The notes beneath the pieces were generated by a model. That model saw nothing but the letters and a program-made list of their open reading frames with translations, was not told the DNA's origin and did no database searches. Positions 1 through 62,414 of a DNA stretch of 64,000 nucleotides are shown here, piece by piece. This DNA is from Patescibacteria group bacterium (GTDB lineage: Bacteria > Patescibacteriota > Minisyncoccia > Phycocordibacterales > EsbW-18), in contig JBBTUJ010000003.1 in NCBI GenBank assembly GCA_038063815.1, forward strand, positions 12,965 to 76,964, given 5' to 3'. The position numbers were made by a program, and so were the translations under genes. Position 1 is the first letter of the stretch. Every line of letters begins with the position of its first letter.

Positions 1-19
1 ACCAACGACCGACAACTAG
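1..19. repeat. left arm ACCAACGACCGACAACTAG of composite inverted-repeat element (copy A)
   Basis: 18/18 nt identical to 34052-34069; roughly complementary to the right arm at 451-487. Confidence 0.6.
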
Positions 20-26
20 AGAAACG

Positions 27-428
27 TCAGTCAAGGGATCTTTTAAACCCACCTATCTGTCTTGCCAGGGTTTCTGTTTTTTCTCGAATACCTTTCTGTT
101 GTAGAGCGTCAAGTATATTAATCTTACACAACGTATCTACTGCTGCTCGGACTTCATAGAGAGAACCGAGTGCGATATCCAGAAATCTCTTTAAATCTGC
201 GTCTGTTTTCTTTCCGCTACCTTCGGCAATATTTAAAATGACCGAAAAAGCAGCTCTGTTCAACTGACTTCCCAGATCAAACCGGTACTCTCTCGGAATA
301 GTTCGAACCAAAGCAGATATCTCGATAAACAGATCTTGAGCAAGTGTGTAAATATTCCAATCCAGAAAACGAAATTGCTTCATGAACGTAAAGGATGTTC
401 CTTCTCCCATAAAAACTTTATAAAACAT
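27..428 (-). CDS. four-helix-bundle protein (23S rRNA intervening-sequence protein family, PF05635-like)
   Basis: 133 aa with the 'NIAEGSGKKTDADLKRFLDIALGSLYEVRAAVD' motif typical of this family; flanked by inverted repeats (1-19 and 451-487). Confidence 0.7.
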   Translation of the reverse strand: MFYKVFMGEGTSFTFMKQFRFLDWNIYTLAQDLFIEISALVRTIPREYRFDLGSQLNRAAFSVILNIAEGSGKKTDADLKRFLDIALGSLYEVRAAVDTLCKINILDALQQKGIREKTETLARQIGGFKRSLD

Positions 429-450
429 CTCTTCTGGGCTCTTCGTTCTG

Positions 451-487
451 GTTGTTGGTTGTAGGTTGTGGGTTGTGGGTTACAATA
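451..487. repeat. right arm GTTGTTGGTTGTAGGTTGTGGGTTGTGGGTTACAATA of composite inverted-repeat element (copy A)
   Basis: shares a 17-nt core GGTTGTAGGTTGTGGGT and the ...GGTTACAATA end with 34100-34141. Confidence 0.6.
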
Positions 488-493
488 TATTCC

Positions 494-1174
494 ATGGCCC
501 AAGCGCAAAAGGCAAAAGCGACGCAAGAATTTGTTCCTATTAAGGAAATACGGAGTGGCATCGTTGTTCTTAAAGACAACTCGTTGCGTTCCGTTCTCTT
601 GGCATCATCCTTGAACTTCGCGCTTAAATCAGAGGATGAACAAACCGCGATAATCTTGCAGTTCCAGAACATGCTGAATTCGCTTGAGTTCCCCATGCAA
701 TTCTTCATACAGTCCCGCGAGCTTGATATCCGGCCCTATCTTGCTCTCCTTGAGGCACAACTTAAAGAACAAACGATCGAACTCATCAAAGTACAGACGC
801 GCGAGTACATCGAGTTCGTCAAGGGATTTACAGAGAACGTGAACATCATGTCGAAGAGTTTCTTCGTTGTTGTTCCCTATAACCCCGCGGTTATCAAATC
901 AAAGGGTGGCGTGTCGGGTGTTCTTGGTGGGCTTATTGGAAAGAACAGAAACGACGCAGAGACGCGCCTCAGTCTCTTTGAAGAATCCCGGAGTCAACTC
1001 GAGCAACGAGTCGCCGTCATCACACAAGGACTCTCCCGCGCCGGCGTTCGCGCAATCCAGCTCGGAACAGAGGAGTTGGTGGAACTTTACTACAAACTCT
1101 TCAATCCGGGCGATTCGGAAAAACCTATCAAGATTGCAACCGACAGCCAACAAAAAAGTGCTGTAACTCGTTAG
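494..1174 (+). CDS. hypothetical protein, resembles the N-terminal region of Gram-positive-type VirB4/PrgJ/TcpF proteins
   Basis: The ATG at 494 lies just after the repeat; the ORF-track start at 452 is a TTG inside the repeat. The motif 'EFVPIKEIRSGIVVLKDNSLRSVL' is like VirB4 N-termini. Sits immediately upstream of the VirB4-like ATPase. Confidence 0.4.
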   Translation: MAQAQKAKATQEFVPIKEIRSGIVVLKDNSLRSVLLASSLNFALKSEDEQTAIILQFQNMLNSLEFPMQFFIQSRELDIRPYLALLEAQLKEQTIELIKVQTREYIEFVKGFTENVNIMSKSFFVVVPYNPAVIKSKGGVSGVLGGLIGKNRNDAETRLSLFEESRSQLEQRVAVITQGLSRAGVRAIQLGTEELVELYYKLFNPGDSEKPIKIATDSQQKSAVTR

Positions 1175-1181
1175 CCATCGT

Positions 1182-3122
1182 ATGTCTATCTTTGATGTAT
1201 TCAAAAGAAAAAAAGGTGTAGACGTGGAGATAACTCCCGTTTTGCCAAAAGATATCTACGAAGCCGGCGTTCTTGAACTCAAAGATATTTTGGCGCCTTC
1301 TGCGCTCAAAATCACACCACGAGAGCTCAACCTCGGAGACAAGATCGTACGGACATTCTTTGTAATCTCGTACCCCCGCTTCGTTCCCGACAACTGGCTT
1401 TCTCCTATCATCAATCTCGATAAAGTATTCGATATCTCGATTTCTATTGTCCCTGTTGAAACGGCACAGGTCCTCAAAGATTTCAGAAAGAAGGTGGCTG
1501 AGGTACAAAGCCAGATACATATGCGAGAGGAACGCGGGCTTGTGCGCGACCCAATGCTCGATGCCGCATACCAAAACCTCGAGGGTCTACGCGACCAACT
1601 CCAGCAGGCAACAGAGAAACTTTTTGATGTTGGTCTCTATATTTCTGTCTATGCAGATAACGAGAACGAGCTCGATAAACTGGAATCCGAGATTCGTTCG
1701 ATTCTTGAAGCGCGTTTGGTGTACCTCAAACCAGCCCTTTTTCAGCAAGAACAGGGGTTCAGGAGCGTTGTTCCTATGAATACAGATGAGCTCCAGGTTC
1801 ACTCAAAACTGAACACATCTCCTCTCTCAAGCTTCTTCCCATTCGTGTCGTTTGACCTCACGTCGGACAAGGGAATCCTCTACGGTATCAACAGACACAA
1901 CTCTTCTCTCATTCTCTTTGACCGATTTTCGCTTCCGAACTACAACTCGGTCACATTCGCAACATCTGGTGCAGGAAAAAGTTACGCGACGAAGCTCGAG
2001 ATTCTCCGTACGCTCATGTTCGATACCGAGGTCATCGTGATTGACCCCGAGCGCGAGTACGAGTTCATGGTTGAAGCAATGGGTGGGAGGTATTTCAATA
2101 TTTCTCTGACATCTGAACACCACATCAACCCATTCGACCTCCCTCCGGTCAAAGAAGACGAGTCACCATCAAATGTGTTGCGCTCGCACATCGTCACCTT
2201 GGTCGGGCTTTTCCGAATTATGTTCGGCGGACTGACACCAGAAGAGGACGCTATCATTGACCGCGCAATAAGCGAAACATACGCGCTCAAAGACATAACT
2301 GGTGATACTGACTTTTCAGGAAACCAGCCGCCGCTTCTTTCTGACTTTGAACTCGTCCTTGCCGGCATGCAGGGTGGGGAATCGCTCGTTCAACGTTTGA
2401 CCAAGTACACGAAAGGGACGTGGTCTGGATTCATCAATAATCCTTCGAATGTTGATATCAACAAAAAGTTCGTCGTCTTTTCTGTGCGCGACATGGAAGA
2501 TGAACTAAAACCCGTCGCGATGTACCTGGTCACACACTACATCTGGAGCGCCGTACGGAAAAACATCAAGAAACGACTCCTTGTCGTCGACGAAGCGTGG
2601 TGGATGATGAAATCAGAGGATACTGCGTCTCTCTTGTTCGGACTCGCAAAGCGAGGACGAAAATACTACCTCGGCATCGCAACGATTACGCAGGACGTCG
2701 GTGACTTCTTGCGCTCGCCATACGGGCTCCCCATCATCACGAACTCATCTATCCAACTTCTCCTCAAACAATCCCCCTCATCGATTGATCTCGTACAGAG
2801 AACATTCAACCTCACCGACGAAGAGAAGTATCTGCTCCTTGAATCGGAAGTCGGTGAAGGAATCTTCTTCGCAGGACTCAAACACGTGGCATCAAAAACG
2901 ATCGCCTCATACACAGAGGACCAAATCATTACATCCGATCCCTCGCAGATCTTGGCAATCAAAAAGTCCCGTGAAGAGTATCGTGCCGCACGAAAAAACC
3001 TCGACGGAGAGCAGGACGCTGGGACATCCGCATCACCACAATCAAATCCAAACGAACCATCGACCCCATCCGCTCCCGAGACCCTCACAAAGGGTGTAGA
3101 ATTAAAGAACGTGCTGGAATAG
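1182..3122 (+). CDS. virB4: VirB4/TrbE/CagE-family type IV secretion ATPase
   Basis: Walker A 'ATSGAGKSYATK' and Walker B 'LLVVDEAWWMM' (the DEAW signature of VirB4); 646 aa. Confidence 0.75.
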   Translation: MSIFDVFKRKKGVDVEITPVLPKDIYEAGVLELKDILAPSALKITPRELNLGDKIVRTFFVISYPRFVPDNWLSPIINLDKVFDISISIVPVETAQVLKDFRKKVAEVQSQIHMREERGLVRDPMLDAAYQNLEGLRDQLQQATEKLFDVGLYISVYADNENELDKLESEIRSILEARLVYLKPALFQQEQGFRSVVPMNTDELQVHSKLNTSPLSSFFPFVSFDLTSDKGILYGINRHNSSLILFDRFSLPNYNSVTFATSGAGKSYATKLEILRTLMFDTEVIVIDPEREYEFMVEAMGGRYFNISLTSEHHINPFDLPPVKEDESPSNVLRSHIVTLVGLFRIMFGGLTPEEDAIIDRAISETYALKDITGDTDFSGNQPPLLSDFELVLAGMQGGESLVQRLTKYTKGTWSGFINNPSNVDINKKFVVFSVRDMEDELKPVAMYLVTHYIWSAVRKNIKKRLLVVDEAWWMMKSEDTASLLFGLAKRGRKYYLGIATITQDVGDFLRSPYGLPIITNSSIQLLLKQSPSSIDLVQRTFNLTDEEKYLLLESEVGEGIFFAGLKHVASKTIASYTEDQIITSDPSQILAIKKSREEYRAARKNLDGEQDAGTSASPQSNPNEPSTPSAPETLTKGVELKNVLE

Positions 3123-4352: not shown

Positions 4353-5189
4353 ATGAAAACCTCAACAAAACTTCTTGTTCATTGTTCATTGTTCATTGTT
4401 TCTTTTTTTGCGATTACGGGCGTTGTGCTCGCAGCAAATGACTATACCCTCCTCGCACCATCGGTGCCTTTTATTGGAAAAACATACACCCCAGGAAATC
4501 TCGCGGGATACCTCCAGGGTATCTTTCGTTTGGGCATCGGGATTGCTGTTACGCTCGCAATTCTTATTCTCGTCAAAAATGGAATCCAGTGGATGGTTTC
4601 CGATGTCGCAGGAAAAAAAGAAGAGGTAAAAGATTGGTCGTGGGACGCCATTCTCGGACTTCTTCTCGCGTTTTCCGCATGGCTCATTCTAAGTACCATA
4701 AACCCAGATCTTGTTAAATTTAAACTCGTACAGACAATTAAAGATGCCAAAGAACAAGCACTTCGTCCTCCCGTTGGGGGTACGGTAACAACGGTAGGAA
4801 AACCGTGGCCAGACGACTCAAAGGAAAGAGGTCTGCTTGATGCTGGGGGCGTTCATGTAAAGACACCAACGTGCAAGACAGATGTTCAAAAGGGCTGTAC
4901 GAGCGTTGCGGGTCTTTCTCAAACGTCAATCTCTAAACTCATCCAGTTAAAGGCGAAGTGTAAGTGCGAGGTATTCATTTCGGGCGGAACAGAGTATTGG
5001 TTACACAAAACTCACGGCGGAAACAATACTGTTGATATTCGTAATTATGCTGACTTAGCTGCATATTTGGGAGGTATGGGAGAAAAGTGCGGAGACACAA
5101 AACCAAAAGATGGTTTGACGTTTCACTGGGAAGACAAAAGTTGTCCGTGGGCCACCGCAGGAGATGGTCACTGGCACGTTCCTTTGTAA
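4353..5189 (+). CDS. signal-peptide protein with two further TM helices and a Cys-rich C-terminal domain; possible pilin-like (VirB2/TrbC-like) T4SS component
   Basis: 'MKTSTKLLVHCSLFIVSFFAITGVVLAA' then 'GIFRLGIGIAVTLAILILV' and 'AILGLLLAFSAWLILSTI'; the 5' end carries TTCATTG tandem repeats. Confidence 0.4.
   Translation: MKTSTKLLVHCSLFIVSFFAITGVVLAANDYTLLAPSVPFIGKTYTPGNLAGYLQGIFRLGIGIAVTLAILILVKNGIQWMVSDVAGKKEEVKDWSWDAILGLLLAFSAWLILSTINPDLVKFKLVQTIKDAKEQALRPPVGGTVTTVGKPWPDDSKERGLLDAGGVHVKTPTCKTDVQKGCTSVAGLSQTSISKLIQLKAKCKCEVFISGGTEYWLHKTHGGNNTVDIRNYADLAAYLGGMGEKCGDTKPKDGLTFHWEDKSCPWATAGDGHWHVPL
4376..4403. repeat. tandem heptad repeat (TTGTTCA/TTCATTG) x about 3.5
   Basis: ttgttcattgttcattgttcattgtttc; the same motif recurs at 32913-32946 and 62415-62454, each at the 5' end of a pilus/T4SS-like gene. 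Confidence 0.7.
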
Positions 5190-5194
5190 GTAAG

Positions 5195-6478
5195 ATGTAT
5201 ATGCCCAAAAAAGTATCCCTCATTCTTACGCTTATCGTCATCCTCGCACTTGTCGGTGGCGTTTGGTTTTGGTTCGCATACATCCACACACCAGCCTCCG
5301 AATCTCCCACAACAGAAGAGTCGCGGGGTGGATTTTTCTCTTTCTTTGGTAACTACTTCGGTGGAAGTGGTGAGCCGGGGACACAGACCCCAACCAACGA
5401 AACCCCGGAAGTGCTTGCTCCCGCGTTCTCATTCCGAGAGCGTCTTACAAAGGAACGAATGCTCTCTCTTTCAGATGTTCCTCTTTCGGGTACAACGTTT
5501 GCACTCATGCGCAAAGGAACGACGACCCCCGCACTGTTCGACGAGCAGGTTCGGTTTGTTGAGAGAGAAACGGGGCACGTTGTTGACCTCTCAATCACAA
5601 CAGGGGACACCGAGCGCATCTCAAACACAACAATCCCCGGTATTCAAGAGACCATCTGGGGCAATGGCGGAAACACAGTTGCCCTTCGTTACCTCGCAGA
5701 AGATAGCGAAACGATAGAGACCTTTGTGGGAACGCTTCCGACAACAACTCCTGTTATGAACACGGACCTTGTTGGAACATTTTTTCCGCAAAACATCACA
5801 TCTCTCGCCATGCGTCCGACGAACGGAGAGGTGTTCTATGTCATCAAAAATCAAGATGGGGCGGCAGGACGTATTACAAATGTCGCAGGCACGAACACCC
5901 GAACTCTCTTTTCTTCTCCTCTTCGTGAGTGGGCCGCGCTCTGGACAAGCCCTTTAATCACCCTCACCACAAAACCGTCTGCACGAGCGACCGGATCTGC
6001 ACACTCTCTTAACCCATCAACGGGAGCGCTTGTACGGCTCACCCCAAACACATCGGGGCTAACTGTTCTTATGAACACGGAGCAAACTCGCGTGCTCTAT
6101 ACCAACACCACCCCTTCTACGGTTTCACTCTTTATACTCAACCTCACCACACAAGAAACATGGACTGTGCCCTTGAGAACTCTTCCAGAAAAGTGTGTGT
6201 GGCGAGATGAAACGAACCTCATATGCGCTGTACCGGACAACGTCCCTGGAAATATGCCCGACATTTGGTACCAAGGACGCGTGTCACTTTCCGATACCTT
6301 ATGGGCAATCGACACCGAAACCAAACTTGTTGATTTCCTCATCTCACCAGAGGAAATTATTGGAGAGGGTGTTGATGCGATTGGGCTTTCACTTTCTTCA
6401 GACGGCACAATTCTCTCGTTCATCAATAAAAAAGATCTGCGTGGTTGGATCGCAGATGTTACGTCAACCAACAACTAG
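5195..6478 (+). CDS. secreted/membrane-anchored Thr-rich protein, unknown function
   Basis: ATG at 5195 lies just after the upstream stop; the ORF-track start at 5087 overlaps the previous gene. TM 'VSLILTLIVILALVGGVWFWF'. C-terminus '...TSTNN' is encoded by the repeat hairpin. Confidence 0.5.
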   Translation: MYMPKKVSLILTLIVILALVGGVWFWFAYIHTPASESPTTEESRGGFFSFFGNYFGGSGEPGTQTPTNETPEVLAPAFSFRERLTKERMLSLSDVPLSGTTFALMRKGTTTPALFDEQVRFVERETGHVVDLSITTGDTERISNTTIPGIQETIWGNGGNTVALRYLAEDSETIETFVGTLPTTTPVMNTDLVGTFFPQNITSLAMRPTNGEVFYVIKNQDGAAGRITNVAGTNTRTLFSSPLREWAALWTSPLITLTTKPSARATGSAHSLNPSTGALVRLTPNTSGLTVLMNTEQTRVLYTNTTPSTVSLFILNLTTQETWTVPLRTLPEKCVWRDETNLICAVPDNVPGNMPDIWYQGRVSLSDTLWAIDTETKLVDFLISPEEIIGEGVDAIGLSLSSDGTILSFINKKDLRGWIADVTSTNN

Positions 6479-6500
6479 TGCTTTGTTTAGTTGTTGGTTG
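6465..6500. terminator. 13-bp perfect hairpin (CAACCAACAACTA / TAGTTGTTGGTTG) between convergent genes; candidate bidirectional terminator
   Basis: the stem arms overlap the stop codons of the 5195-6478 gene (TAG at 6476-78) and of yidC (TAA complement at 6487-89); built from the CAACCAACAAC repeat family. Confidence 0.55.
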
Positions 6501-7233
6501 TTGGTTGTTGGTTTTCGGCCGTTATTTTTTTCCTTGTCCACCATTCTTGCCCGATTGAGAATAGGTTTGATGTCGTCCAATAGAGCGCAACCGATGCGGG
6601 TAGCGCAGAAGCGATAAAGACGATGACAACGGGGAAGATGTATTTCATCTGGAACTGCAAACTCTTACTGAACTCGTTCCCGAATGATGGCTTGGTGTCT
6701 TTCTTTGTCTCAGGAACGCGCATGAGCTTCGCTTGGAAGAATTGTGAGACGCCGGCAAGGATAGCGATAGGAATACTCCTTACTGTCACGTCCACAAGTC
6801 CCAGGAACATCGTATTGATGTGTGACGGGGCATCAACGAATGAGTAGAGGAATGTGGGGTCTATCGCGGGAAAACCGGCCCGCAGAACCATGAAATAGAG
6901 ACCGAAAATGATCGGAATCTGAATGAAAAGAAAGAGGATATTCGAGAACGGATTAACCTTGTTGTTCCGATAGAGCTCCATCATCTTCACTGCCTGCTCT
7001 TGTTTGTCGTTCTTGTACTTCTCTTTAATGGCATCCATCTCCGGTTGGAGTTTTTGCACCATGAGTTGGGTGCGGACCGATTTTTGCGCGATAGGGAAGA
7101 GGATGAGTCGAATCACGCACGTGAAGACAATCACGATTACCCCGAGATCTGCCCAGGGAAGCGCCTGCATCAAAAGAACAATCCCGTTATACAAAGGTGT
7201 GGTAACAAACGTTCCGAATATGCTGTGTGACAT
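6487..7233 (-). CDS. yidC: membrane protein insertase YidC (short form)
   Basis: 248 aa, multi-TM, Oxa1/YidC-like; sits in the conserved rpmH-rnpA-yidC arrangement; C-terminus '...QQPTTNN'. Confidence 0.8.
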   Translation of the reverse strand: MSHSIFGTFVTTPLYNGIVLLMQALPWADLGVIVIVFTCVIRLILFPIAQKSVRTQLMVQKLQPEMDAIKEKYKNDKQEQAVKMMELYRNNKVNPFSNILFLFIQIPIIFGLYFMVLRAGFPAIDPTFLYSFVDAPSHINTMFLGLVDVTVRSIPIAILAGVSQFFQAKLMRVPETKKDTKPSFGNEFSKSLQFQMKYIFPVVIVFIASALPASVALYWTTSNLFSIGQEWWTRKKITAENQQPTTNN

Positions 7234-7852: not shown

Positions 7853-7971
7853 AACTTTAATTGTGTGTTGTTGGTCGTTGGTTGTCGGTTAATTTGTCCC
7901 CACATTATTAACATAGTTATCTCCTTCTCACAAGTTCTCTCGGCACACCACTCATCTATAATGAACACTCT

Positions 7972-9348
7972 ATGACAACAACAACGACCACTCCCACCGA
8001 CACAAAGTCATTGTGGAAACATGTTCTCTCCGGCGTCGAGATTGTTGTGTCGAAACCCGTATTTCGAACATGGTTCAAGGGTACACACATCGTTCGTGTT
8101 GATGATGGGGTTGTCTATATTGGTGTTCCAAACCTTTTTGCAAAGGATTGGATTTCGTCAAAACATCACAAGACGATACTCCGGCTCTTGCGTGAGGTCT
8201 CAGACATCGTCCGTTCAGCAGAATATGTTATCTCAACCAAGGCTCCCGAGGACGCAACACTTCCGACCCTGACGCGCGAAGACGCGCTTCCACAATCGTT
8301 CGGTGAGTTGCCACTCAAAGATCTCTACATCAACAGGGCGGACAACTTGAATCCGCGCTACACGTTCGACTCATTTGTTGTTGGTTCGTTCAACGAACTC
8401 GCACATGCCGCCGCACAGGCAATCCTTGAGCGTCCTGGTATGCGCTATAACCCGCTCTTTGTGTATGGACAAACAGGACACGGAAAAACACACCTTATCC
8501 AGGCAATCGGAAACGAGATAAAAAAGAGATTCCCTGACAAAAAGGTGTTTTATGTTACCTCTGAACGGTTTTCTCAGGAGCTGGTGAATGCGATACAAAC
8601 GAATGCTGTTGGGGCATTCAAGGAAAAGTATCGAAAATTCGATGTTTTGATCATGGACGATGTGCAGTTTCTTTCAAGTAAGGAAAAGACGCAGGAAGAA
8701 CTCTTCCACACATTTAATGATATCTACGAGAAGAACGGTCAGATTATTTTTTCATCTGATCGTCATCCCAACTACATCTCTTCGATTGCAGATCGGTTGA
8801 AATCTCGCTTCAACGCTGGAATGACTGTTGATATCCCGCCCCCTGACGCAGAGTCCCGGATGGCAATCGTCAAATCAAAAGCGTCAGAAAACGGCATCAC
8901 CCTTCCTCAAGAAACACTCATGTTCCTCGCCACATCGATTGAAGGAAACATCCGCGAGCTTGAGGGGGCACTCAATTCACTTCTTGTACAAACACACATG
9001 AAGAAGCGCGATCTCACACTCGCCGAGATTAAAGAGATCATAAAAAACAACGTACGCCCCAAGAAGATGGTTGCGGTCAAAGAGGTGGTTAAGATTGTGT
9101 CTGGATTCTATAACCTCGACGAGGAAAGTATTTATAAGAAAAGCCGAAAAAAGGAGGTGGTTAGGCCTCGTCAAATCATCATGTATCTTCTCCGGGAGGA
9201 TTTTGCGCTTCCGTATCCGTCGATAGGACAGAAGATGGGTGGTAGAGACCACACAACAGTTATTCACTCATATGAGAAGGTTAAGGAAGATATCAAAACA
9301 GACCACCAACTAGAACAAGAGATCGCACAACTGCGTGCGATGCTCTGA
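7972..9348 (+). CDS. dnaA: chromosomal replication initiator protein DnaA
   Basis: AAA+ Walker A 'GQTGHGKTHL', C-terminal DnaA-box-binding domain, classic position. Confidence 0.95.
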   Translation: MTTTTTTPTDTKSLWKHVLSGVEIVVSKPVFRTWFKGTHIVRVDDGVVYIGVPNLFAKDWISSKHHKTILRLLREVSDIVRSAEYVISTKAPEDATLPTLTREDALPQSFGELPLKDLYINRADNLNPRYTFDSFVVGSFNELAHAAAQAILERPGMRYNPLFVYGQTGHGKTHLIQAIGNEIKKRFPDKKVFYVTSERFSQELVNAIQTNAVGAFKEKYRKFDVLIMDDVQFLSSKEKTQEELFHTFNDIYEKNGQIIFSSDRHPNYISSIADRLKSRFNAGMTVDIPPPDAESRMAIVKSKASENGITLPQETLMFLATSIEGNIRELEGALNSLLVQTHMKKRDLTLAEIKEIIKNNVRPKKMVAVKEVVKIVSGFYNLDEESIYKKSRKKEVVRPRQIIMYLLREDFALPYPSIGQKMGGRDHTTVIHSYEKVKEDIKTDHQLEQEIAQLRAML

Positions 9349-9356
9349 TAAGGGTG

Positions 9357-9502
9357 GATTTATCCAGCACTTACATTACTGTTATGTTTTTGTTACCAAA
9401 ACAACCCCAGAAGACAGAGAGTTATCGTTTGGTATTTTGGGGTTGTGTACGTGTTTTATAAAAACACAACATAACAACAGTAATGTAAGTGCTGGATAAA
9501 TC
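9357..9502. repeat. long imperfect palindrome (32-nt arms, 24 bp perfect core) in the dnaA-dnaN spacer; oriC-associated candidate
   Basis: left GATTTATCCAGCACTTACATTACTGTTATGTT pairs with right AACATAACAACAGTAATGTAAGTGCTGGATAAATC, which has a 3-nt bulge; inner palindrome GTGTTTTATAAAAACAC; arm ends carry TTATCCAGC (DnaA-box-like, 2 mismatches). Confidence 0.6.
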
Positions 9503-17169: not shown

Positions 17170-17513
17170 ATTAAAAATGGTATGCTAGGATACCCATGCG
17201 TACATGAGGATTTCTTGACATGTCCGCGTGAACATTCAAAACTAGTGCTTCGCGTAGTGTGGGTACGTTTTAAAACGCTCCAAGCAAAAAAGAGGTTATC
17301 GACCCGCCCGAGGCGGGTAAATAAAGAGAGCAGGCGAGAAACCTCTGAGCAAACGTCATACGCCCGTATGCTCATCATCGGTGAGGAACCGTTGGTTGAT
17401 TTGAACTCGTTTCAAGCCAGCGAACAGTCCCCTTAACAGATATGAGGCTTTGCTCAGAGATTTCTCTTCTGGTCACGTGCAGTCAAACTTCATCCATCAT
17501 ACTCCTTTTTATG

Positions 17514-19787: not shown

Positions 19788-19867
19788 TTGGCCACTATTG
19801 GTCCGACGTGACGGTACGTTAGTTATTGAATAAAGTCAACTCTTTTTCCTAGTGCTACAATTCATTT

Positions 19868-20812
19868 ATGAAGAGGGTTACCATCGCATCTCTTTCCGAG
19901 ATGAAAACATTTGCTGAGAGTGTTTTGAAGAATCTCAAACCGCAAAAAAAGACCGCGACAGTTTTCGGACTCCGTGGTGATTTGGGTGCGGGGAAAACAG
20001 CATTTGTAAAGGCGATTGCCGAAACTCTCGGAGTAAAAGAACACATCACGAGTCCGACGTTCGTGATACAAAAAATCTACAACCTACCTACCCGACACGC
20101 AGGCGGGCAACCAACAACAAACGAAGGGTTCAAAAAACTCGTTCACATTGATGCGTATCGACTTCAATCGGGAGACGAGCTCAAAAAGATTGAGTGGGAG
20201 GAAACTGTTGCTGATCCGACAGGCCTCATCTTTGTTGAGTGGCCAGAGAACGTGAAAGGAATCATGCCGGAGGGCGCATACCACATTGACTTCGAACATG
20301 TTGATGAGCACACACGATCTGCATCGGTTATGAAAACGCCATTTACACTCTGTGTGATCCACAAGCCACCGAACATTCTTTTGGGGATGAAAAAACGCGG
20401 GTTTGGTGCGGGGAAATGGAATGGATTCGGTGGTAAGGTCGGAGAAAATGAAACCTTAGAACAAGCAACGCTTCGGGAAATCAAAGAAGAAGTAGGAATT
20501 GTGCCGCACAAAATAGAAAAAGTTGGAATACTTGAGTTTGCATTTGAAAACGACACGAAAGGATTTGAGATGCATATTTTTTGTGGGAATGAATTTGAGG
20601 GAGAACCAACCGAAACAGAAGAAATGAAACCACAATGGTTTCATGTGGACAACATACCGTTTTCCGAGATGTGGCCAGACGATGAATATTGGATCCCGCT
20701 TTTCTTGTCAGGAAAATTATTCCGGGCAAGGTTTCTTTTTGACAGACCATCTGATACAGAATATTCAGTGAAAATCATTGAGCACACAATCTCTGAGGTA
20801 GAGAAGCTCTAG
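19868..20812 (+). CDS. tsaE: TsaE (t6A37 biosynthesis ATPase YjeE) fused to a C-terminal Nudix hydrolase domain
   Basis: N-terminus 'GDLGAGKTAFVKAIAETLGV...TSPTFVI'; C-terminal Nudix box 'GGKVGENETLEQATLREIKEEVGI'; internal repeat-encoded 'GGQPTTNEG'. Confidence 0.75.
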   Translation: MKRVTIASLSEMKTFAESVLKNLKPQKKTATVFGLRGDLGAGKTAFVKAIAETLGVKEHITSPTFVIQKIYNLPTRHAGGQPTTNEGFKKLVHIDAYRLQSGDELKKIEWEETVADPTGLIFVEWPENVKGIMPEGAYHIDFEHVDEHTRSASVMKTPFTLCVIHKPPNILLGMKKRGFGAGKWNGFGGKVGENETLEQATLREIKEEVGIVPHKIEKVGILEFAFENDTKGFEMHIFCGNEFEGEPTETEEMKPQWFHVDNIPFSEMWPDDEYWIPLFLSGKLFRARFLFDRPSDTEYSVKIIEHTISEVEKL

Positions 20813-20814
20813 GC

Positions 20815-23271
20815 ATGCCGAAAAAACCATCACCAACAAAAACAAAAAAGGGGAAAACGGGCGGAAAGCCGAAGCGGCTCGTGCTTCTTGATGCACACGC
20901 GATTATTCATCGTGCATACCACGCGCTTCCTGACTTTACATCCGCAACAGGCGAGCCGACGGGGGCGCTCTATGGTCTTGCGGCGATGCTCCTGAAGATT
21001 ATCGCGGATTTGAAGCCGGACTACATCGCGGCCGCATACGATCTTCCAAAACCAACACACCGCCACATCGCGTACGAAAAATATAAAGCGACACGCAAAG
21101 AGCTTGAAGAACCTCTTGTTGCTCAGCTTGTGCGAAGCAGGGACGTTTTCAAGGCATTCTCGATTCCAATTTACGATAGGGAAGAATTCGAAGCGGACGA
21201 TATCTTGGGCACGATTGTTGAAATGTTCAAAGACGATTCTTCAGTCGAAATCGTAATCGCGTCGGGCGACATGGATACGCTCCAACTTGTTTCGGGAGCG
21301 CGCGTCAAAGTGTTCACGCTCCGGAAGGGCATACAAGATACGATTCTCTACGACGAAAGCGACGTCGAGAAGCGCTTTGGATTTCCTCCAGTCCTTTTGC
21401 CTGACTACAAAGGTCTCCGCGGAGACCCGTCGGATAATATTCCCGGCATTGCTGGTATCGGAGAAAAAACAGCAACGACACTTATCACGACGTTTGGTGA
21501 CCTGGACGCGCTCTATAAAACACTTGCAAAAGGAGAGGAGAAGTTTTTAGGAGCAGGGATAACAAAACGAATCGTCGGACTTTTGAAAGAAGGAGAAGAA
21601 GAAGCGCGATTTTCGAAACTTCTCGCAACGATTCGGCGGGATGCGCCCATTACGTTCACACTTCCTGACACCGTCTGGCGCGAGCACGTTTCGGTGTCGG
21701 AGATTGTCACTCTTTTCACCGAACTCGGATTCCGCTCCCTCGTTGCCCGGGCAAAGGAAGCATTTCCTGAAATAAACCAACAACCAACAACAAACAACCA
21801 ACAACAAATATTTTACACAGAACCCACAACCTCTTTGTCTCATCAAGAATTAACTGAAACAAAGGTCGCCCTGTGGCTTCTGAACTCCGAGATCACCAAT
21901 CCGACGGAGGAAGATATCAAATATTTCGCACGGACGGACGACATCAAAAAGGCACGCGAACACATTCTTTCTGAGGTACAAAAGCAGGGTCTTACGGACG
22001 TTTTTGAAAAGATCGAAAAACCGCTTACGCCTGTTCTTGAAAAGATGCACGAGCGAGGTGTTCGCATCGATACGTCGTACTTAAGCGACATCGCGGAATC
22101 GTACCACGCGGAGCTCGATGCACTGAAGAGAAAGATATTCGAGCGTGCCGGAATGGAATTTAACTTAAATTCCCCGCGACAACTCGGAGATGTTCTCTTT
22201 ACCACACTAGGACTCACGGGAGGAAAGAAAACATCAACAGGGCAGAGGTCAACGCGCGAGTCAGAACTCGCAAAACTCGCGGACAAGCACCCGATTATTG
22301 GAGAGATTTTGCAACACAGGGAACTCCAGAAACTCCTCTCAACATATATTGATGCATTTCCAAAACTTCTTGGTCCCGATGGGCGTTTGCACACAACATT
22401 TGTACAAACGGGAGCGGCAACGGGACGTATGTCGTCTCAAAATCCGAACTTGCAGAATATTCCGATCAAAACGGAGCGCGGCCGCGCTGTTCGTGGAGCA
22501 TTTGTTGCATGTCCGGGTTTTGTGCTCGCAACATTTGACTACTCGCAGATTGAGCTCAGAATCGCAGCGATTCTTTCGCAAGATGAAAAACTTCTCAAAA
22601 CATTTTCTGAAGGCGGTGATATTCACACGGCTGTTGCGTCAGAGATTTTTAATGTGCCACAAAACGATGTGACGCAGACGATGCGCCGCACCGCGAAAGT
22701 CATTAACTTCGGTATCATCTACGGCATGGGCGCGAACGCGCTCGCAGCAACGGCGGGCATGAGTCGTAAAGATGCGCAAAAATATCTCGCGGAATATGAA
22801 AAGACATTCCCGACCCTCTCGCGTTGGATCGAGACCCTTTTTGGTGAAGTCCGAAAAAAAGGTTACACAGAAACACTTTTTGGGCGTCGGAGGCATCTTC
22901 CCGGTATCCGATCACCTCTTCCGTATATTCAGGCAGAAGCAGAGCGCCAAGCGGTCAATGCGCCCATTCAGGGAACTTCTGCAGACATCATCAAACGCTC
23001 AATGGTTGAGGTTGATGAATATATTGCACGAGAAAAATTAGATGACGACGTTTTTGCGATTCTTCAGATTCACGATGAACTCATGTATGAAATAAGGGAA
23101 GGTGTTGCAGACAAGGTCGTTCCGGAAATAAAAAAGATTATGGAGGCAGGGCTTAGAGACCACCTGCCTGCCGGCAAGGCAGGCGAGACGTATGGGGTTC
23201 CGATTGTTGTTGATGCCTCGGTCGGCACGCGGTGGGGAGAAATGAAAAAAGTAAACAACAAGAAAGAATAA
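20815..23271 (+). CDS. polA: DNA polymerase I (5'-3' exonuclease + polymerase; no 3'-5' exonuclease domain)
   Basis: motifs 'RRRHLPGIRS', 'INFGIIYGMG', 'QIHDELMYE'; 818 aa; the linker contains repeat-encoded 'QQPTTNNQQQ'. Confidence 0.9.
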   Translation: MPKKPSPTKTKKGKTGGKPKRLVLLDAHAIIHRAYHALPDFTSATGEPTGALYGLAAMLLKIIADLKPDYIAAAYDLPKPTHRHIAYEKYKATRKELEEPLVAQLVRSRDVFKAFSIPIYDREEFEADDILGTIVEMFKDDSSVEIVIASGDMDTLQLVSGARVKVFTLRKGIQDTILYDESDVEKRFGFPPVLLPDYKGLRGDPSDNIPGIAGIGEKTATTLITTFGDLDALYKTLAKGEEKFLGAGITKRIVGLLKEGEEEARFSKLLATIRRDAPITFTLPDTVWREHVSVSEIVTLFTELGFRSLVARAKEAFPEINQQPTTNNQQQIFYTEPTTSLSHQELTETKVALWLLNSEITNPTEEDIKYFARTDDIKKAREHILSEVQKQGLTDVFEKIEKPLTPVLEKMHERGVRIDTSYLSDIAESYHAELDALKRKIFERAGMEFNLNSPRQLGDVLFTTLGLTGGKKTSTGQRSTRESELAKLADKHPIIGEILQHRELQKLLSTYIDAFPKLLGPDGRLHTTFVQTGAATGRMSSQNPNLQNIPIKTERGRAVRGAFVACPGFVLATFDYSQIELRIAAILSQDEKLLKTFSEGGDIHTAVASEIFNVPQNDVTQTMRRTAKVINFGIIYGMGANALAATAGMSRKDAQKYLAEYEKTFPTLSRWIETLFGEVRKKGYTETLFGRRRHLPGIRSPLPYIQAEAERQAVNAPIQGTSADIIKRSMVEVDEYIAREKLDDDVFAILQIHDELMYEIREGVADKVVPEIKKIMEAGLRDHLPAGKAGETYGVPIVVDASVGTRWGEMKKVNNKKE

Positions 23272-25554: not shown

Positions 25555-25600
25555 AATACAGTAACAAACAACCAACAACCTACAACAAGCAAGAGAGGCC
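25555..25600. repeat. CAACCAACAAC-family repeat (gtaacaaacaaccaacaacctacaacaag) in the 5' region of the LTD gene
   Basis: the same motif family as at 1-19, 451-487, 6465-6500, 7861-7890, 20105-20120, 21778-21810, 34052-34141. Confidence 0.6.
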
Positions 25601-29359: not shown

Positions 29360-29845
29360 CTAGAAGCCGAGTATTTCCATGATGTGCTCGGAGAGCGATT
29401 CCTTCACCTCCTCTTCTGAGATGTGATCGAGCAGCCGTTCGCGGACATCCGAGGCGGGCACGCCCTCAAGGGGAAGTGTGATGTACGGCATAAAAACCTT
29501 TTGTGATTTAACGATGAGTTTATTTGGGATTCTGTGCTCGTGTATCCAAAATGATTCAAGCGTTTGGTATGGAAAAAGCACCCCATCAACAACCACGCCT
29601 CTTGTATTGATTTCAAATGACACGTGCCGCGGATGACGAAGTACATACAGAACAAGCGTCAGTGCGCCGATGATAATCAAAACACCAAAGAGAACATTTC
29701 CAAAAATAATCGCAAGAATCGCTCCTCCGAGTGCGATAACGCCAACGGCCCAAAACCAATCGTTTGATCGTTCGCGATGCTCGTACTCAAGCGCGCTCCA
29801 GATGAGGGGTTCCATGCAAGTATTGTAGCGCATATCACGAAGCAT
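29360..29845 (-). CDS. integral membrane hypothetical protein
   Basis: two TM helices 'WFWAVGVIALGGAILAIIFGNVLFGVLIIIGALTLVLYVL'. Confidence 0.45.
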   Translation of the reverse strand: MLRDMRYNTCMEPLIWSALEYEHRERSNDWFWAVGVIALGGAILAIIFGNVLFGVLIIIGALTLVLYVLRHPRHVSFEINTRGVVVDGVLFPYQTLESFWIHEHRIPNKLIVKSQKVFMPYITLPLEGVPASDVRERLLDHISEEEVKESLSEHIMEILGF

Positions 29846-29908
29846 GAAACATGAATCGTGAATTAACGCTGGACGAGTAAGTGTTTGTTGTATATTGTTC
29901 GTCTGAAC

Positions 29909-30789: not shown

Positions 30790-30812
30790 GCCTTTCTTGG
30801 TACAATCACTAT

Positions 30813-32060
30813 ATGACCAAGCCGCAAAGAATATTTGTTGCCGTTCTCACCTTGCTTGTTGGCGTAGGACTTTTGTTTGTCGGCTTTACTACTCGAAACG
30901 CAGAAAAAGGAACCACCAATGATTCCGAGACGTCAGGGCTTCCGGAAGAGGTGTCCCTGCTTACGTACGGTGAACCAGTCAGTTATTCTGCATCTGTTCC
31001 GGCTCATTGGAAATTGTATAAAAACAAAGAACTCGGAATTTCTTTTATGTATCCGCCAACCATGCGGGTTGAGCAATATGTAAAGTCACATATTTCTCTT
31101 GTGAGTGGGGCAGAAAAAACGGAGATTGCCTGTAACGAAGAGCGACCCGAAGTACCACCATGGATTTCTTTTTCCTTCATGAATAACCCTGAAAATCTAT
31201 CACTCGAAGACCTTGCTGGGGCATTGCAAGTATTTGATAACCCCACGGTAGTTCATCCGGTTACGTTTGCAGAACAACGAGGTCTTCTTTATGAATCTCG
31301 TTATCTAGATGGTGGTATTCGTAAGAACCTATTCATTGAGGTTTTTGATCGTGCTGTACAAGTTGATTGGTGGCCAGATATCAATTCTGACGAAGAGTGG
31401 AAAAATACGATTCACACAGTTCTCTCATCCCTTTCTTTTCCGGAAGTTGAAAGGAAAAGTATGTATGAGTTAGAGCCCATGTCATCAGATTATGAGACGG
31501 ACTATCGGCTTGTTTTTTATGACGAGAGCGGGAGCAAGCGTGTTCTTTTAAACAACGTTAATACGTTAGCGGGAGTTTATCTGCAGGAGTTCTATTTTCC
31601 CGTCGGTAAAGAAAAAATCTACTTCTCCTCCCTCGCTTATGGATCGGATTCCCCCTGGAGCGATTTGTATAAATATGATCTTTCAACGTCGACTTTCCAA
31701 AGAATGAATATCTCTGATTTCATACGGTCTGAAAGATTTTTATCTCCGGATAAGAGATGGATTGCTGGGTACAATACACGTTCAGAGAAAACAGTTGGTA
31801 CAGAAGAGTCATTGTACGTATTCGATTTGGAAAAAGACGAAATGGAAGAAGAGGTTCGTTTAGAGGGAGGAAATCTTACTTTTATGGAAACGTGCCAGGC
31901 AGAGATAGCCGATGTTTGCTGGGGTAGCGATTTACAATGGCTTGATGATAACTCTTTTGAATACAAGGTATATAGAGCCGATGGGCCAACGATGTGCAAG
32001 AGTGACTCCAACACCCATTTCCCATTATTTGAAACTCGTCGCGCCGTACTGACACCCTAA
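30813..32060 (+). CDS. secreted/membrane-anchored hypothetical protein (AT-rich accessory)
   Basis: N-terminal TM 'IFVAVLTLLVGVGLLFVGF'; no recognised domain. Confidence 0.45.
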   Translation: MTKPQRIFVAVLTLLVGVGLLFVGFTTRNAEKGTTNDSETSGLPEEVSLLTYGEPVSYSASVPAHWKLYKNKELGISFMYPPTMRVEQYVKSHISLVSGAEKTEIACNEERPEVPPWISFSFMNNPENLSLEDLAGALQVFDNPTVVHPVTFAEQRGLLYESRYLDGGIRKNLFIEVFDRAVQVDWWPDINSDEEWKNTIHTVLSSLSFPEVERKSMYELEPMSSDYETDYRLVFYDESGSKRVLLNNVNTLAGVYLQEFYFPVGKEKIYFSSLAYGSDSPWSDLYKYDLSTSTFQRMNISDFIRSERFLSPDKRWIAGYNTRSEKTVGTEESLYVFDLEKDEMEEEVRLEGGNLTFMETCQAEIADVCWGSDLQWLDDNSFEYKVYRADGPTMCKSDSNTHFPLFETRRAVLTP

Positions 32061-32834: not shown

Positions 32835-32912
32835 TTGGTAGACCGTAGTACGAAGAACGTGGCGCGCCGCTTCTCCCTGATTCTGCAGAATTAGGGAGAA
32901 GCGGCAAATCCT

Positions 32913-32946
32913 TGTTCCTTGTTCATCGTTCATTGTGTATCATTGA
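32913..32946. repeat. degenerate TTCATTG heptad tandem repeat upstream of pilM
   Basis: ttgttccttgttcatcgttcattgtgtatcattg immediately 5' of the pilM ATG (32951). Confidence 0.6.
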
Positions 32947-32950
32947 CACT

Positions 32951-34045
32951 ATGGCTCTCTCAGAAAAACTCCTTTCTGTTTTTCCTCTACCTTCATCCGT
33001 CACAATGCCGGCGGTTGGGCTTGATATCTCGGATCACTCAATAAAATTTCTCGAACTCGTACACTCACACACAGGATTCCGTGTCGGACGGTTCGGAACG
33101 AAGGAGATTCCCGAAGGCATTGTGGTAGGCGGCATGATTACGCGAAGGGACGACCTCGTGAAGATTCTCGCCGAACTCAAAGATGAGCACAAACTCACGT
33201 ATGTCCGCGCGTCTCTTCCCGAAGAGCCAGGATACATCTTTACGACGATTGTTCCCGCGGTCTCACCCGACGAAATCCGAAGCTTGCTCAAGTTCAAACT
33301 TGAGGAACACGTGCCGATCTCTCCGACAGATGCGGTGATCGATTTTGACACTGTTGCAACCGACGCACCTGTTGGTTCAAAAGAAAAAGTTGTTGCTGTT
33401 TCTGTTTTTCCTGAAGGGTTAGCACAGATTTACGTTGACCTTCTTCACGCTGCCGGTCTCACGCCCGTTTCACTCGAGATAGAAGCCCAGGCGATCGCGC
33501 GCGCGGTCGTGCCGCAGAACCTTACCGCCGCATGTATGTCGGTTGATGTTGGGCGGACGCGTTCGTGTATCAGTGTCGTTGCGGGAGGTGTCGTGCGATT
33601 TACCACGACGGTTGACATTGGCGGAGACGGCTTGTCTCTCGCAATCGCCAAAGCACTTCCTAACGCAAAGGAAGAAGAAATTCTCGTTCTTAAGAACGAA
33701 GAAGGGCTTGCACACACAGAGCACGAAGATGTGAAAACGGCGATGTACGCATTTGCAAAGACGCTTCGAAATGAGATTGAGCGCTATTACATCTATTGGC
33801 AAACACATCCCGAACAAAACCAAAAACTGCCACACCCGCTTGTTGACCGCGTGTTCCTCTCGGGTGGATACGCGAATACCGCAGGGCTCTCGGAATTTTT
33901 ATCCGAAGAACTCTTGATGCCCGTAATACGAGCAAATGTGTGGGAGAACGCATTTTCACTCGACGACCATGTTCCGCCCCTCGAATATCGTCACTCACTG
34001 AGTTACGCGTCATCAATTGGTCTTGCGCTCCATCAGGATACGTAA
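32951..34045 (+). CDS. pilM: type IV pilus assembly protein PilM (actin-like ATPase)
   Basis: 'VGLDISDHSIKFLEL', 'VDVGRTRSCISVV', 'RVFLSGGYANTAGL' actin-fold motifs; followed by pilN/pilO-like genes. Confidence 0.8.
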   Translation: MALSEKLLSVFPLPSSVTMPAVGLDISDHSIKFLELVHSHTGFRVGRFGTKEIPEGIVVGGMITRRDDLVKILAELKDEHKLTYVRASLPEEPGYIFTTIVPAVSPDEIRSLLKFKLEEHVPISPTDAVIDFDTVATDAPVGSKEKVVAVSVFPEGLAQIYVDLLHAAGLTPVSLEIEAQAIARAVVPQNLTAACMSVDVGRTRSCISVVAGGVVRFTTTVDIGGDGLSLAIAKALPNAKEEEILVLKNEEGLAHTEHEDVKTAMYAFAKTLRNEIERYYIYWQTHPEQNQKLPHPLVDRVFLSGGYANTAGLSEFLSEELLMPVIRANVWENAFSLDDHVPPLEYRHSLSYASSIGLALHQDT

Positions 34046-34051
34046 TACAAA

Positions 34052-34141
34052 ACCAACGACCGACAACTAACGACAGAAAACATTGGCAAATGGCGAAGTG
34101 GTTTGTTGTGGGTTGTAGGTTGTGGGTCGTTGGTTACAATA
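34052..34141. repeat. composite inverted-repeat element (copy B, no cargo) between pilM and pilN
   Basis: left ACCAACGACCGACAACTA (identical to 1-18) + 30-nt spacer + right GTTTGTTGTGGGTTGTAGGTTGTGGGTCGTTGGTTACAATA; ACCAACGACC pairs with GGTCGTTGGT. Confidence 0.65.
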
Positions 34142-34146
34142 GTGTT

Positions 34147-34695
34147 GTGGCGAATTTGCTCCCGACAACAGAACGTCTCGCGCTTCTTGCGGGACGAAAG
34201 CGAAAGTTAACGACCGTTTCGACGATACTCGTTGCGGGCACGTTGGCGGTTGCGATTGCACTCCTCCTCCCTTCTCTTATAACGGTGCTTGCTCGTAAGG
34301 AGTCGAGCGATGAGCGTCTTCTTGCGACACAAAAACTCCTCGACCTCCAGAAGGAAACAGGAACCGGGGCCGATCTTGTTCGCACACAAGAAACCATCAC
34401 ACTTCTGGGGAATACGTTGAGGAGCGTCTCTCCGTACGAGAGCGTGCGTGACCTTGTCGACCTTATCCCCTCGGGAGTTACGGTGCGGCATATTTCCATT
34501 GCCACTGAAGGAGAAACGACGACTATCTCGTTTTCGGGAATGGCAGATACACGAACAGCCCTCATATCGTTCGGTGATCGGTTACGTCAATCAGGTTTGT
34601 TTGCTCAGGTTTTGATTCCGCTTCCCGCACTTGCTCAAAATATCGACATCGCATTCGATCTCCATCTCGTGTTCACTCACAGCGAGAAAAAATAA
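34147..34695 (+). CDS. pilN: type IV pilus assembly protein PilN-like
   Basis: a GTG start just after the repeat gives 'MANLLPTTERLALLAGRKRK' (PilN 'INLLP' motif) followed by a TM; the ORF-track 33940 start reads through the repeat. Confidence 0.55.
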   Translation: MANLLPTTERLALLAGRKRKLTTVSTILVAGTLAVAIALLLPSLITVLARKESSDERLLATQKLLDLQKETGTGADLVRTQETITLLGNTLRSVSPYESVRDLVDLIPSGVTVRHISIATEGETTTISFSGMADTRTALISFGDRLRQSGLFAQVLIPLPALAQNIDIAFDLHLVFTHSEKK

Positions 34696-62250: not shown

Positions 62251-62268
62251 TGCCTTTGAAAATGCTAC

Positions 62269-62401
62269 ACCCGCACACTAACTTTTGTATTGTTGCAGCA
62301 GGAGACGAACCACTTTTTCTTAAGACGGAGTAAGGGAACACTTTTCGATTTTGCTATTAAACTACAACGTAATAACGCTATACAAAAGTTAGTGTGCGGG
62401 T
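62269..62401. repeat. 22-bp perfect inverted repeat (ACCCGCACACTAACTTTTGTAT / ATACAAAAGTTAGTGTGCGGGT) enclosing an about 90-nt interior
   Basis: arms at 62269-62290 and 62380-62401; between the SIMPL terminator and the second pilB promoter (TATACT at about 62401-62406). Confidence 0.7.
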
Positions 62402-62414
62402 ATACTAAGGGTAC

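Follow-up and report, generated by a model that had tools for sequence, protein, structure and literature searches.

A PF05635 four-helix-bundle gene between inverted heptamer arrays in an operon spacer of a Patescibacterium, with counterparts in four bacterial phyla

Introduction

Intervening sequences (IVSs) of ribosomal RNA genes that carry an open reading frame (ORF) of the S23p/PF05635 family have been described in Leptospira, Coxiella, Xanthomonas and the 16S and 23S genes of bacteria of the candidate phyla radiation (CPR) (PMC4990558, PMC11270868). The ORF occupies the loop of a stem formed by terminal inverted repeats, the elements are sporadic among close relatives, and RNase III excises them without religation of the RNA. 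In the 23S IVS of Coxiella, which is excised in this way, three GACAGAT repeats precede the start codon of S23p (PMC4990558); literature cited in that paper describes the Xanthomonas homologue XCC0516 as a homopentameric toroid of four-helix bundles. Here we report on a member of this protein family in a stretch of 64,000 nt, referred to below as the window, from a Patescibacteria group bacterium (assembly GCA_038063815.1, contig JBBTUJ010000003.1, positions 12,965–76,964). The four-helix-bundle (4HB) gene lies between inverted arrays of heptanucleotides at positions 1–487 of the window, and arms of the same kind form a hairpin lacking any ORF between pilM and pilN, 34 kb away.

Tandem heptanucleotide repeats have been studied separately. 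They include the cyanobacterial short tandemly repeated repetitive (STRR) sequences, TAACTGA (PMC4679880) and the GGGAATC/GGGGATT repeats of Xanthomonas and Nostoc (PMC4692102). In common with the arrays reported here they consist of 7-nt units in 3–6 copies, are intergenic, lie within a few nucleotides of start codons, often form convergent pairs and have no known function. A survey ranked tandem heptamers first in abundance among the intergenic periods of prokaryotes and saw 'no clear clue' to what they do (PMC6344855). In these studies the repeats were considered by themselves, whether as G-quadruplexes or as regulators of translation, and none tied them to PF05635 or to IVSs. In the literature we searched there was no paper linking PF05635/4HB genes to heptamer arrays in general, the sole related remark being the one on Coxiella, and a family-wide link thus appears to be undescribed there.

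Two other kinds of element bear comparison. Avd (bAvd), the accessory protein of diversity-generating retroelements (DGRs), belongs to the same fold superfamily and is a basic four-helix bundle, pentameric in solved members. Repetitive extragenic palindromes and bacterial interspersed mosaic elements (REP/BIME), as well as MITEs (transposable elements of the miniature inverted-repeat kind), resemble the present loci: they too are short palindromes of intergenic DNA that are present in some relatives and absent from others.

We show that the gene-between-inverted-heptamer-arrays architecture is a general property of the PF05635 family across phyla. On balance, and with moderate confidence, we read the window locus as an IVS-type cassette, in which a PF05635 gene of ~120 aa sits in the loop of inverted arrays of a single heptamer in a spacer of a type IV secretion system (T4SS)-like operon, and the pilM|pilN hairpin as the ORF-less form of the same unit.

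The 4HB gene and its flanking arrays

The 4HB gene (27–428, minus strand; ORF of 133 aa) is antisense to the surrounding T4SS-like operon and lies in the spacer between a prgI-family gene and a split virB4. Its left, A/C-rich arm (1–19, plus strand) comprises the last 2.7 units of an (ACCAACN)n array truncated by the start of the window and forms the 3′ end of the upstream PrgI-family gene, including the TAG stop (17–19). Contig L001 (contigs and loci used for comparison are cited by L numbers) reaches 442 nt beyond the window start, and the left arm is therefore longer than the window shows: in full it reads three times ACCAACG, then ACCGACA and ACTAG, and encodes the PrgI-family tail STNDQRPTTDN-stop. 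The right, G/T-rich arm (450–487, plus strand) consists of five GGTTGTN units running into TACAAT (481–486), 7 nt before the ATG at 494. This ATG opens the downstream host gene (494–1174, plus strand), the N-terminal part of the split VirB4 ('TraC-like'; NF045975 positions 99–233), which is followed by the VirB4 ATPase gene (1182–3122).

The encoded protein is a member of PF05635 (E=5.9e-24, 84.8 bits, cutoff 33.8) and TIGR02436 'four helix bundle protein' (84.2 bits, cutoff 24), the '23S rRNA IVS protein' family, and matches the solved structure of XCC0516 (PDB 2gsc, E=7.6e-10). The GxxRxxxSxxxNxxEG motif described for the family in PMC3936711 is present, with G53, R58, S62, N66, E69 and G70 invariant or nearly so in a 40-sequence alignment. 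The start codon is uncertain: the NCBI call is M7 (ATG 410, 127 aa) and homologues begin at the equivalent of M16 (ATG 383, with the family-typical MKxFRFLDW), either of which is more likely than ATG 428. A candidate −10 box, TATAAA (417–422, minus strand), 6 nt upstream of ATG 410, could, to judge from the sequence, serve a leaderless promoter of the inverted gene; many gene starts of the window share this arrangement (TAnAAT-N6-7-start). An exact-protein look-up with the 127-aa version returned no record; public copies of the window protein occur in Hainich groundwater assemblies and in one Patescibacteria metagenome-assembled genome (MAG). No second 4HB gene was found in the window.

Kinship with Avd raises the question of whether the locus is a remnant or satellite of a DGR, with the 4HB protein as its Avd. 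PF05635 includes bAvd, some of the homologues also match PF22296 (bAvd), and the window protein itself has a weak match to NF033474. This match, however, reaches 18.8 bits against a cutoff of 80 for the Avd equivalog, the neighbours encode PrgI, the N-terminal VirB4 part (VirB4-N) and VirB4, with no reverse transcriptase nearby, and the flanking repeats are inverted heptamer arrays rather than the template and variable repeats of a DGR, for which no explicit search was made. Given the subthreshold score and the PrgI/VirB4 neighbourhood, the locus was rejected as a DGR member, and we regard a DGR origin as very improbable.

A hairpin without an ORF between pilM and pilN

The second site lies between pilM and pilN, whose identities were confirmed by Pfam. 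Its left arm (34051–34082) begins 6 nt past the pilM stop (34043–34045), the loop occupies 34083–34103, and the right arm (34104–34135; all plus strand) runs into TACAAT (34135–34140), 6 nt before the GTG of pilN at 34147; the arms are 32 nt long and 78% complementary. The initial annotation had placed a 4HB gene between two arms and a gene-less copy of these arms at 34 kb. All elements proved to be in place and the copy holds no ORF; its arms are 21 nt apart.

The identical cores that it had reported, of 18/18 and 17/17 nt, were confirmed. The left-arm 18-mer ACCAACGACCGACAACTA is exact at 1–18 and 34052–34069, and the window contains 8 matches to it within 3 mismatches (0.02 expected); the right-arm 17-mer GGTTGTAGGTTGTGGGT is exact at 457–473 and 34111–34127, with 14 near matches (0.11 expected). 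By BLAST, similarity of the right arms extends even further, to 34/37 nt with TACAAT included (451–487 versus 34105–34141). Folding, which had been proposed as a check, bore out the pairing at both sites. In the minimum free energy fold of 1–500 (plus strand) bases 1–20 pair with about 455–476 of the right arm, and the 34-kb copy folds as a long hairpin (dG −44.4 kcal/mol, z=−5.3), more strongly on the plus (−41.4 kcal/mol) than on the minus strand (−25.4 kcal/mol). The loop of this hairpin has no similarity to the interior of the 4HB cassette; the arms alone are common to both loci, and simple loss of the interior from a filled copy therefore does not explain the empty one. An Rfam search found no family at either locus. 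Both loci are identical base for base in three independent assemblies.

Inverted heptamer arrays accompany 4HB genes

For comparison we used 80 metagenomic loci encoding 4HB homologues at 33–58% identity. At nearly every 4HB ORF an A-rich array ends a few nucleotides before the start codon and the inverse array begins at the stop codon. Among 65 non-redundant loci, the lag-7 autocorrelation of the two flanks was 0.71 and 0.68, compared with 0.38 in random segments, and no other lag was enriched. The arrays have a median length of ~32 nt (mode 5 units); their median distance is 5 nt to the start codon and 0 nt to the stop codon. Units differ by locus (ACAACTN, ACGACTN, ATAACTN, CAGCTNN, AAAGAAT, ACACCTA and GAGAACN), while the two arms of one locus share their unit. 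The left arm is A-rich in 29/35 filled and 13/18 ORF-less pairs. Units lie within one mismatch in 22% of comparisons between sites of one contig versus 11% between contigs, a modest difference (p=0.001). The median isoelectric point of the homologues, 9.2, is compatible with binding of nucleic acids.

Inverted flanking repeats with a score of at least 12 were detected at 33/56 4HB ORFs and at 8/192 other complete ORFs on the same contigs (odds ratio 33, Fisher p=1e-18). This within-contig control replaced a comparison of RNAduplex energies of true and mismatched flanks, which was uninformative because arms of different loci are alike and inflate the null. A sceptic could still regard the arrangement as a chance juxtaposition of low-complexity sequence, since the arms are simple repeats whose fit in shifted registers is nearly as good as in the true one. 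We give this almost no credence in view of the exact repeats of 18 and 17 nt (0.02 and 0.11 expected), the z-score of the hairpin and the strength of the family-wide association.

The proposal of the initial annotation that the architecture is not restricted to rRNA was borne out: the cassette occurs in 16S rRNA, between tRNA genes and between cistrons. In two loci (L082 and L080) it lies inside the 5′ domain of 16S rRNA, and these inserts are classical IVSs with heptamer arms. In six others (L033, L060, L066, L067, L076 and L077) it separates tRNA genes. Outside CPR bacteria, Xanthomonas carries XCC0516 between accB and accC as TGA-(GGGAATC)4-ORF-(NATTCCC)4-ATG. The left arm of this cassette is Xcc repeat #15 of the G-quadruplex heptamer study, the supplement of which describes its neighbour simply as 'conserved' and makes no mention of an inverted partner (PMC4692102). 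Plasmid copies are framed by (GGGTGTA)n...(TACACCC)n in Calothrix, by (TAGGGAG)8...(TCCCTAC)5 in Nostoc edaphicum, where the cassette is antisense between nrdB and nrdA, and by (AGGTGAC)n...(GTCACCT)4 in Anabaena sp. 90 (L102), between cas6 and cas4; a plasmid copy of Riemerella anatipestifer (Bacteroidota) has inverted heptamer arrays on both flanks. Altogether, the gene-in-heptamer-hairpin cassette was found in four bacterial phyla.

4HB genes situated between cas6 and cas4, or between cmr3 and cmr2, have been called 'CRISPR-associated' (PMC3936711), and the Anabaena locus is one with heptamer flanks. This association may merely reflect insertion of the cassette in spacers of cas operons. 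Several kinds of insertion can meet in one rRNA operon, as in L053 (1–2200), where a CPR 16S rRNA gene contains ORF-less GAAATTC-type heptamer hairpins at 657–756, a second hairpin pair (1629–1768) lies between the end of the 16S gene (1335) and a group I intron (1930–2187), and a 4HB cassette follows ~800 nt past the intron.

Gain, loss and movement among relatives

The distinction between filled and empty sites, which the initial annotation had drawn within the window alone, was recovered among relatives, where orthologous junctions exist in filled, empty and absent states. About 20 of the 4HB loci carry an orthologous operon of prgI, virB4-N and virB4-C. The cassette is found upstream of prgI, at prgI|virB4-N or at virB4-N|virB4-C, with 1–3 divergent copies per operon; in L063 all three junctions are filled. 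Unoccupied junctions are either a few nucleotides long or contain ORF-less heptamer hairpins (L047, L039 and L014). Between L014, where the cassette is at virB4-N|virB4-C, and L024, where it precedes prgI, the 4HB proteins share 83% identity and the PrgI proteins 57%, which indicates that the cassette changes junction on the time-scale of host divergence.

Where single T4SS-like operons contain two or three 4HB paralogues (L063 3001–5421, L019 and L020), these are ~32% identical where alignable and stand one per junction. In the window two genes encode VirB4, one of 226 aa for the N-terminal part and one of 646 aa for the ATPase (494–3122). In several relatives (L047, L039, L070, L037 and L014 among them) the 4HB cassette lies exactly between the halves, and in L051, L019, L027 and L016 the halves are 1–24 nt apart. 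By analogy with the fragmentation of rRNA by IVSs, the cassette may have caused the split.

Two relatives inform on the pil locus. L106, a close one whose PilM is 86% identical, has a pilM|pilN spacer of 36 nt without arrays and keeps the same TACAAT-N6-GTGGCGAAT start as the window; in L107 the spacer measures 6 nt. The initial annotation had named, as a result that would count against it, a relative lacking the copy with pilM–pilN spacing unchanged. In L106 the hairpin is missing and the spacer is ~65 nt shorter, which identifies the window hairpin as an insertion or deletion of a discrete unit of about that length. No target-site duplication is visible at the boundary of this indel between the window and L106. 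In the same two relatives, orthologous 4HB genes (63% identical) lie in opposite orientations between ruvX and a tRNA-binding-domain gene, with arms (GTGAATC)n...(GATTCAC)n in L106. In the window these two host genes abut (32461/32463), with no spacer and no 4HB gene. The relatives therefore differ in presence or absence of the cassette, in the junction occupied and in its orientation.

Such behaviour would also be expected of a hairpin mobile at the DNA level, analogous to REP/BIME or to IS200/IS605-type targets, in which an unlinked recombinase or transposase would recognise a cruciform or single-stranded hairpin and the 4HB protein would either be carried along as cargo or assist by binding DNA. 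Besides presence/absence, relocation and inversion, this explanation would accommodate the near-identical arms at two loci 34 kb apart, the wobble-type mismatches without strand bias, which fit a constraint on DNA better than one on RNA, and units that are slightly more alike within a contig than between contigs. We nevertheless think it distinctly unlikely, since neither an adjacent transposase nor, between the window and L106, a target-site duplication is seen, units at separate sites, even those of a single contig, are very dissimilar, unlike those of copy-paste elements, and the insertion sites (operon spacers, tRNA arrays and rRNA helices) suggest tolerance at the RNA level.

Other heptamer arrays and palindromes in the window

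A scan for period 7 (at least three head-to-tail 7-nt units) detected 11 heptamer arrays in the 64 kb, compared with 0.95 in shuffled sequence. With gene boundaries judged by a crude ORF set, 7/11 lie at boundaries and 4 inside ORFs, of which the one at 25560–25588 is upstream of a probable start (ATG 25551). Being mostly intergenic and present at many sites, these arrays belong with the tandem heptanucleotide repeats, and the arms are thus not private to the 4HB gene: heptamer arrays are common to many gene boundaries. A second ORF-less heptamer hairpin (6466–6516), of the motif class seen in the arms, lies between yidC (6487–7233) and a convergent ORF (5087–6478), and the tails of both are encoded by the arrays (STNN-stop in the ORF and NQQPTTNN-stop in YidC). 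A single array of the same unit family as the arms precedes dnaA (7861–7891, plus strand, intergenic), and a single (GGTTGTN)n array (25560–25588, minus strand) stands directly upstream of TACTGT and ATG 25551, in a layout like that of both right arms. Arrays with other units were found at 4371–4408, 29834–29864 and 32908–32936; the latter two, like 25560–25588, are T/G-rich and lie directly upstream of a −10-like box and the start of the next gene.

One account of these observations would do without any element. The arrays would be ordinary boundary signals, the T-rich ones upstream promoter elements of leaderless genes and the A-rich ones 3′-end or tail sequence, and the 4HB gene an ordinary small resident gene, possibly a regulator, that lies between two of them by chance. 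The number of arrays in the window and their position fit this account, as do the T/G-rich arrays directly upstream of a TAnAAT-N6-7-start at 494, 25551 (minus), 29815 (minus), pilM (ATG about 32957; array 32908–32936) and 34147, the frequency of arrays in other intergenic gaps of the 4HB contigs, and arms devoid of position-specific covariation. It is harder to reconcile with the 33-fold enrichment of inverted flanks at 4HB ORFs over other ORFs of the same contigs, with a locus-specific unit common to both arms in four phyla, or with a cassette inside 16S rRNA, where the logic of promoters and terminators fails. Moreover, L106 keeps the −10 box and start of pilN without the hairpin, which is thus dispensable for that promoter, and scans for consensus sigma-70 promoters and intrinsic terminators found nothing at the arms of either locus. 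We therefore consider this account unlikely, and retain the IVS-type cassette as the preferred reading.

Many genes of the window start without a Shine-Dalgarno sequence and have TAnAAT, often TGnTAnAAT, 6–9 nt upstream (481–494, 19852–19868, 30797–30813, 34135–34147, 29815–29832 (minus) and 13313 (minus), among others), a pattern that suggests widespread leaderless mRNAs in this Patescibacterium.

One of the arrays, (ACCAACN)n at 21771–21810 (plus strand), is in frame in the linker between the 5′–3′ exonuclease and polymerase domains of PolA (NQQPTTNNQQQ), where it is translated as EINQQPTTNNQQQ. In 596 Gb of contigs the left-arm 18-mer has 9 matches, about the number expected by chance. One exact copy is in frame (KTNDRQL) in an SMC gene of an unrelated Patescibacteria MAG (L010 678–695); the segment looks inserted near the C-terminal head domain, and the 18-mer there is probably due to chance.

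Palindromes of other kinds are present as well. Just downstream of dnaA (7972–9348), a nested palindrome of 146 nt (9357–9502; 37-nt arms, 89% complementary) encloses a second hairpin; non-coding, AT-rich DNA follows for ~250 nt, and this may be where replication originates. A loopless, near-perfect palindrome of 20+20 nt (GCCGCTTCTCCCTGATTCTG/CAGAATTAGGGAGAAGCGGC; 32866–32905) separates the tRNA-binding-domain gene from pilM and is immediately followed by a TCNTTGT heptamer array; at this junction L107 has an ORF-less (TTCCAAA)n...(TTTGGAN)n hairpin and L106 has nothing. Further long inverted repeats, again near gene boundaries of the crude ORF set, occur at 62266–62404 (25 nt, 96% complementarity, 89 nt apart) and 17328–17474 (26 nt, 85%, 95 nt apart).

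Discussion

The window locus has the anatomy of an rRNA IVS. A gene of the same protein family sits in the loop of a stem formed by terminal inverted repeats, the element is sporadic among close relatives, and tandem heptamers adjoin the ORF start in Coxiella too. It differs in its host site, a spacer between protein genes rather than a helix of rRNA, in the antisense orientation of the ORF relative to the operon around it, and in the left arm, which encodes the tail of the preceding gene. The window has 7 tRNA matches and no rRNA gene, so that the locus was not filed as an rRNA IVS despite the shared anatomy. From REP/BIME and MITEs it is set apart by arms that are tandem arrays with site-specific units, by a gene of a specific protein family in the loop, and by having no visible target-site duplication, linked REP-associated transposase (RAYT) or other transposase. 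Identity as a MITE was rejected: the two loci share arms alone, no target-site duplication or transposase was seen, and units differ between sites.

The interpretation offered in the initial annotation, a miniature inverted-repeat or IVS-like element, is accordingly supported in part. Its core, an IVS-like inverted-repeat element with filled and empty states beyond rRNA, holds and can be generalised, whereas MITE-type transposition and processing by RNase III are not established. The reservation it had made, that the arms might be a genome-wide simple repeat without conserved pairing, turned out to be partly justified. The arms are indeed a heptamer simple repeat without significant position-specific covariation; inverted flanks, on the other hand, are specifically associated with 4HB genes.

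We envisage the cassette as a unit with an A/purine-rich 5′ arm and a T/pyrimidine-rich 3′ arm, which reads the same on either strand and would inhabit spacers beside or inside transcription units. In read-through transcripts the arms could close into a long stem that tolerates shifts of register. This stem would insulate the insert or, on the model of rRNA IVSs such as that of Coxiella (PMC4990558), lead to its excision by RNase III. Inserts would then be tolerated only between cistrons, between tRNAs and in rRNA expansion helices, because there the RNA can be cut without religation. Recombination between the inverted arms may invert the interior, which would account for the antisense orientation of the window copy, and similar arrays at other boundaries may provide homology for moving or copying the unit, which would explain the 18/18- and 34/37-nt identity of arms 34 kb apart. 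With the −10 box of a putative leaderless promoter at the end of the 3′ arm, the downstream gene would keep its expression whatever is placed upstream.

Several observations weigh against the cassette reading, some of them against its RNA-level part. Position-specific covariation between the arms is not significant (unit-permutation summed Z=1.64), shuffling entire units inside an arm costs the best pairing score very little, shifted registers are nearly as good, and on the 4HB sense strand there is no bias for G-U over A-C mismatches (32 G-U-type versus 41 A-C-type). Since the shared unit accounts for the complementarity of the arms, and neither covariation nor wobble bias is seen, the data give no sign of selection for one particular RNA helix. 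The arms may be a zipper that tolerates register shifts, a hairpin at the DNA level or symmetric protein-binding arrays. Furthermore, both right arms end in the −10 box of apparent leaderless promoters, and the flanking genes may thus be separate transcription units. Heptamer arrays also occur singly at many gene boundaries that have no 4HB gene, and 2/10 non-CPR loci (eight plasmid and two Xanthomonas loci; L098 and L100 are the exceptions) are without arrays. The 80 loci were picked through the 4HB gene, so this sample cannot give the share of hairpin loops with other cargo. Finally, no transposase is adjacent to the locus and no mobility enzyme was identified.

A more far-reaching proposal, which we put forward as a tentative conjecture, is that 4HB pentamers and heptamer arrays belong together as the two parts of a single widespread system. 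In it the protein would bind about five units of its own arrays, as RNA or single-stranded DNA, and promote processing, maintenance or copying of the cassette, possibly together with a polymerase in an Avd-like manner. Orphan arrays and ORF-less hairpins would be footprints or targets of this system, whose insertion would have produced, as by-products, rRNA IVSs and the splitting of operons and of genes like virB4.

Two puzzles have been open for decades: the role of the '23S rRNA IVS protein' family together with the origin of IVSs, and the reason for the predominance of 7-nt tandem repeats among the intergenic repeats of prokaryotes. The window locus, taken with the comparative data, connects the two. 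A general cassette appears to have the rRNA IVS as one of its settings and is also found in operon spacers and tRNA arrays, and this cassette flips and moves between junctions, with ORF-less hairpins of the same kind at comparable ones. The question is testable in cultivable Xanthomonas, where the cassette splits the essential accB–accC pair and a crystal structure of XCC0516 exists.

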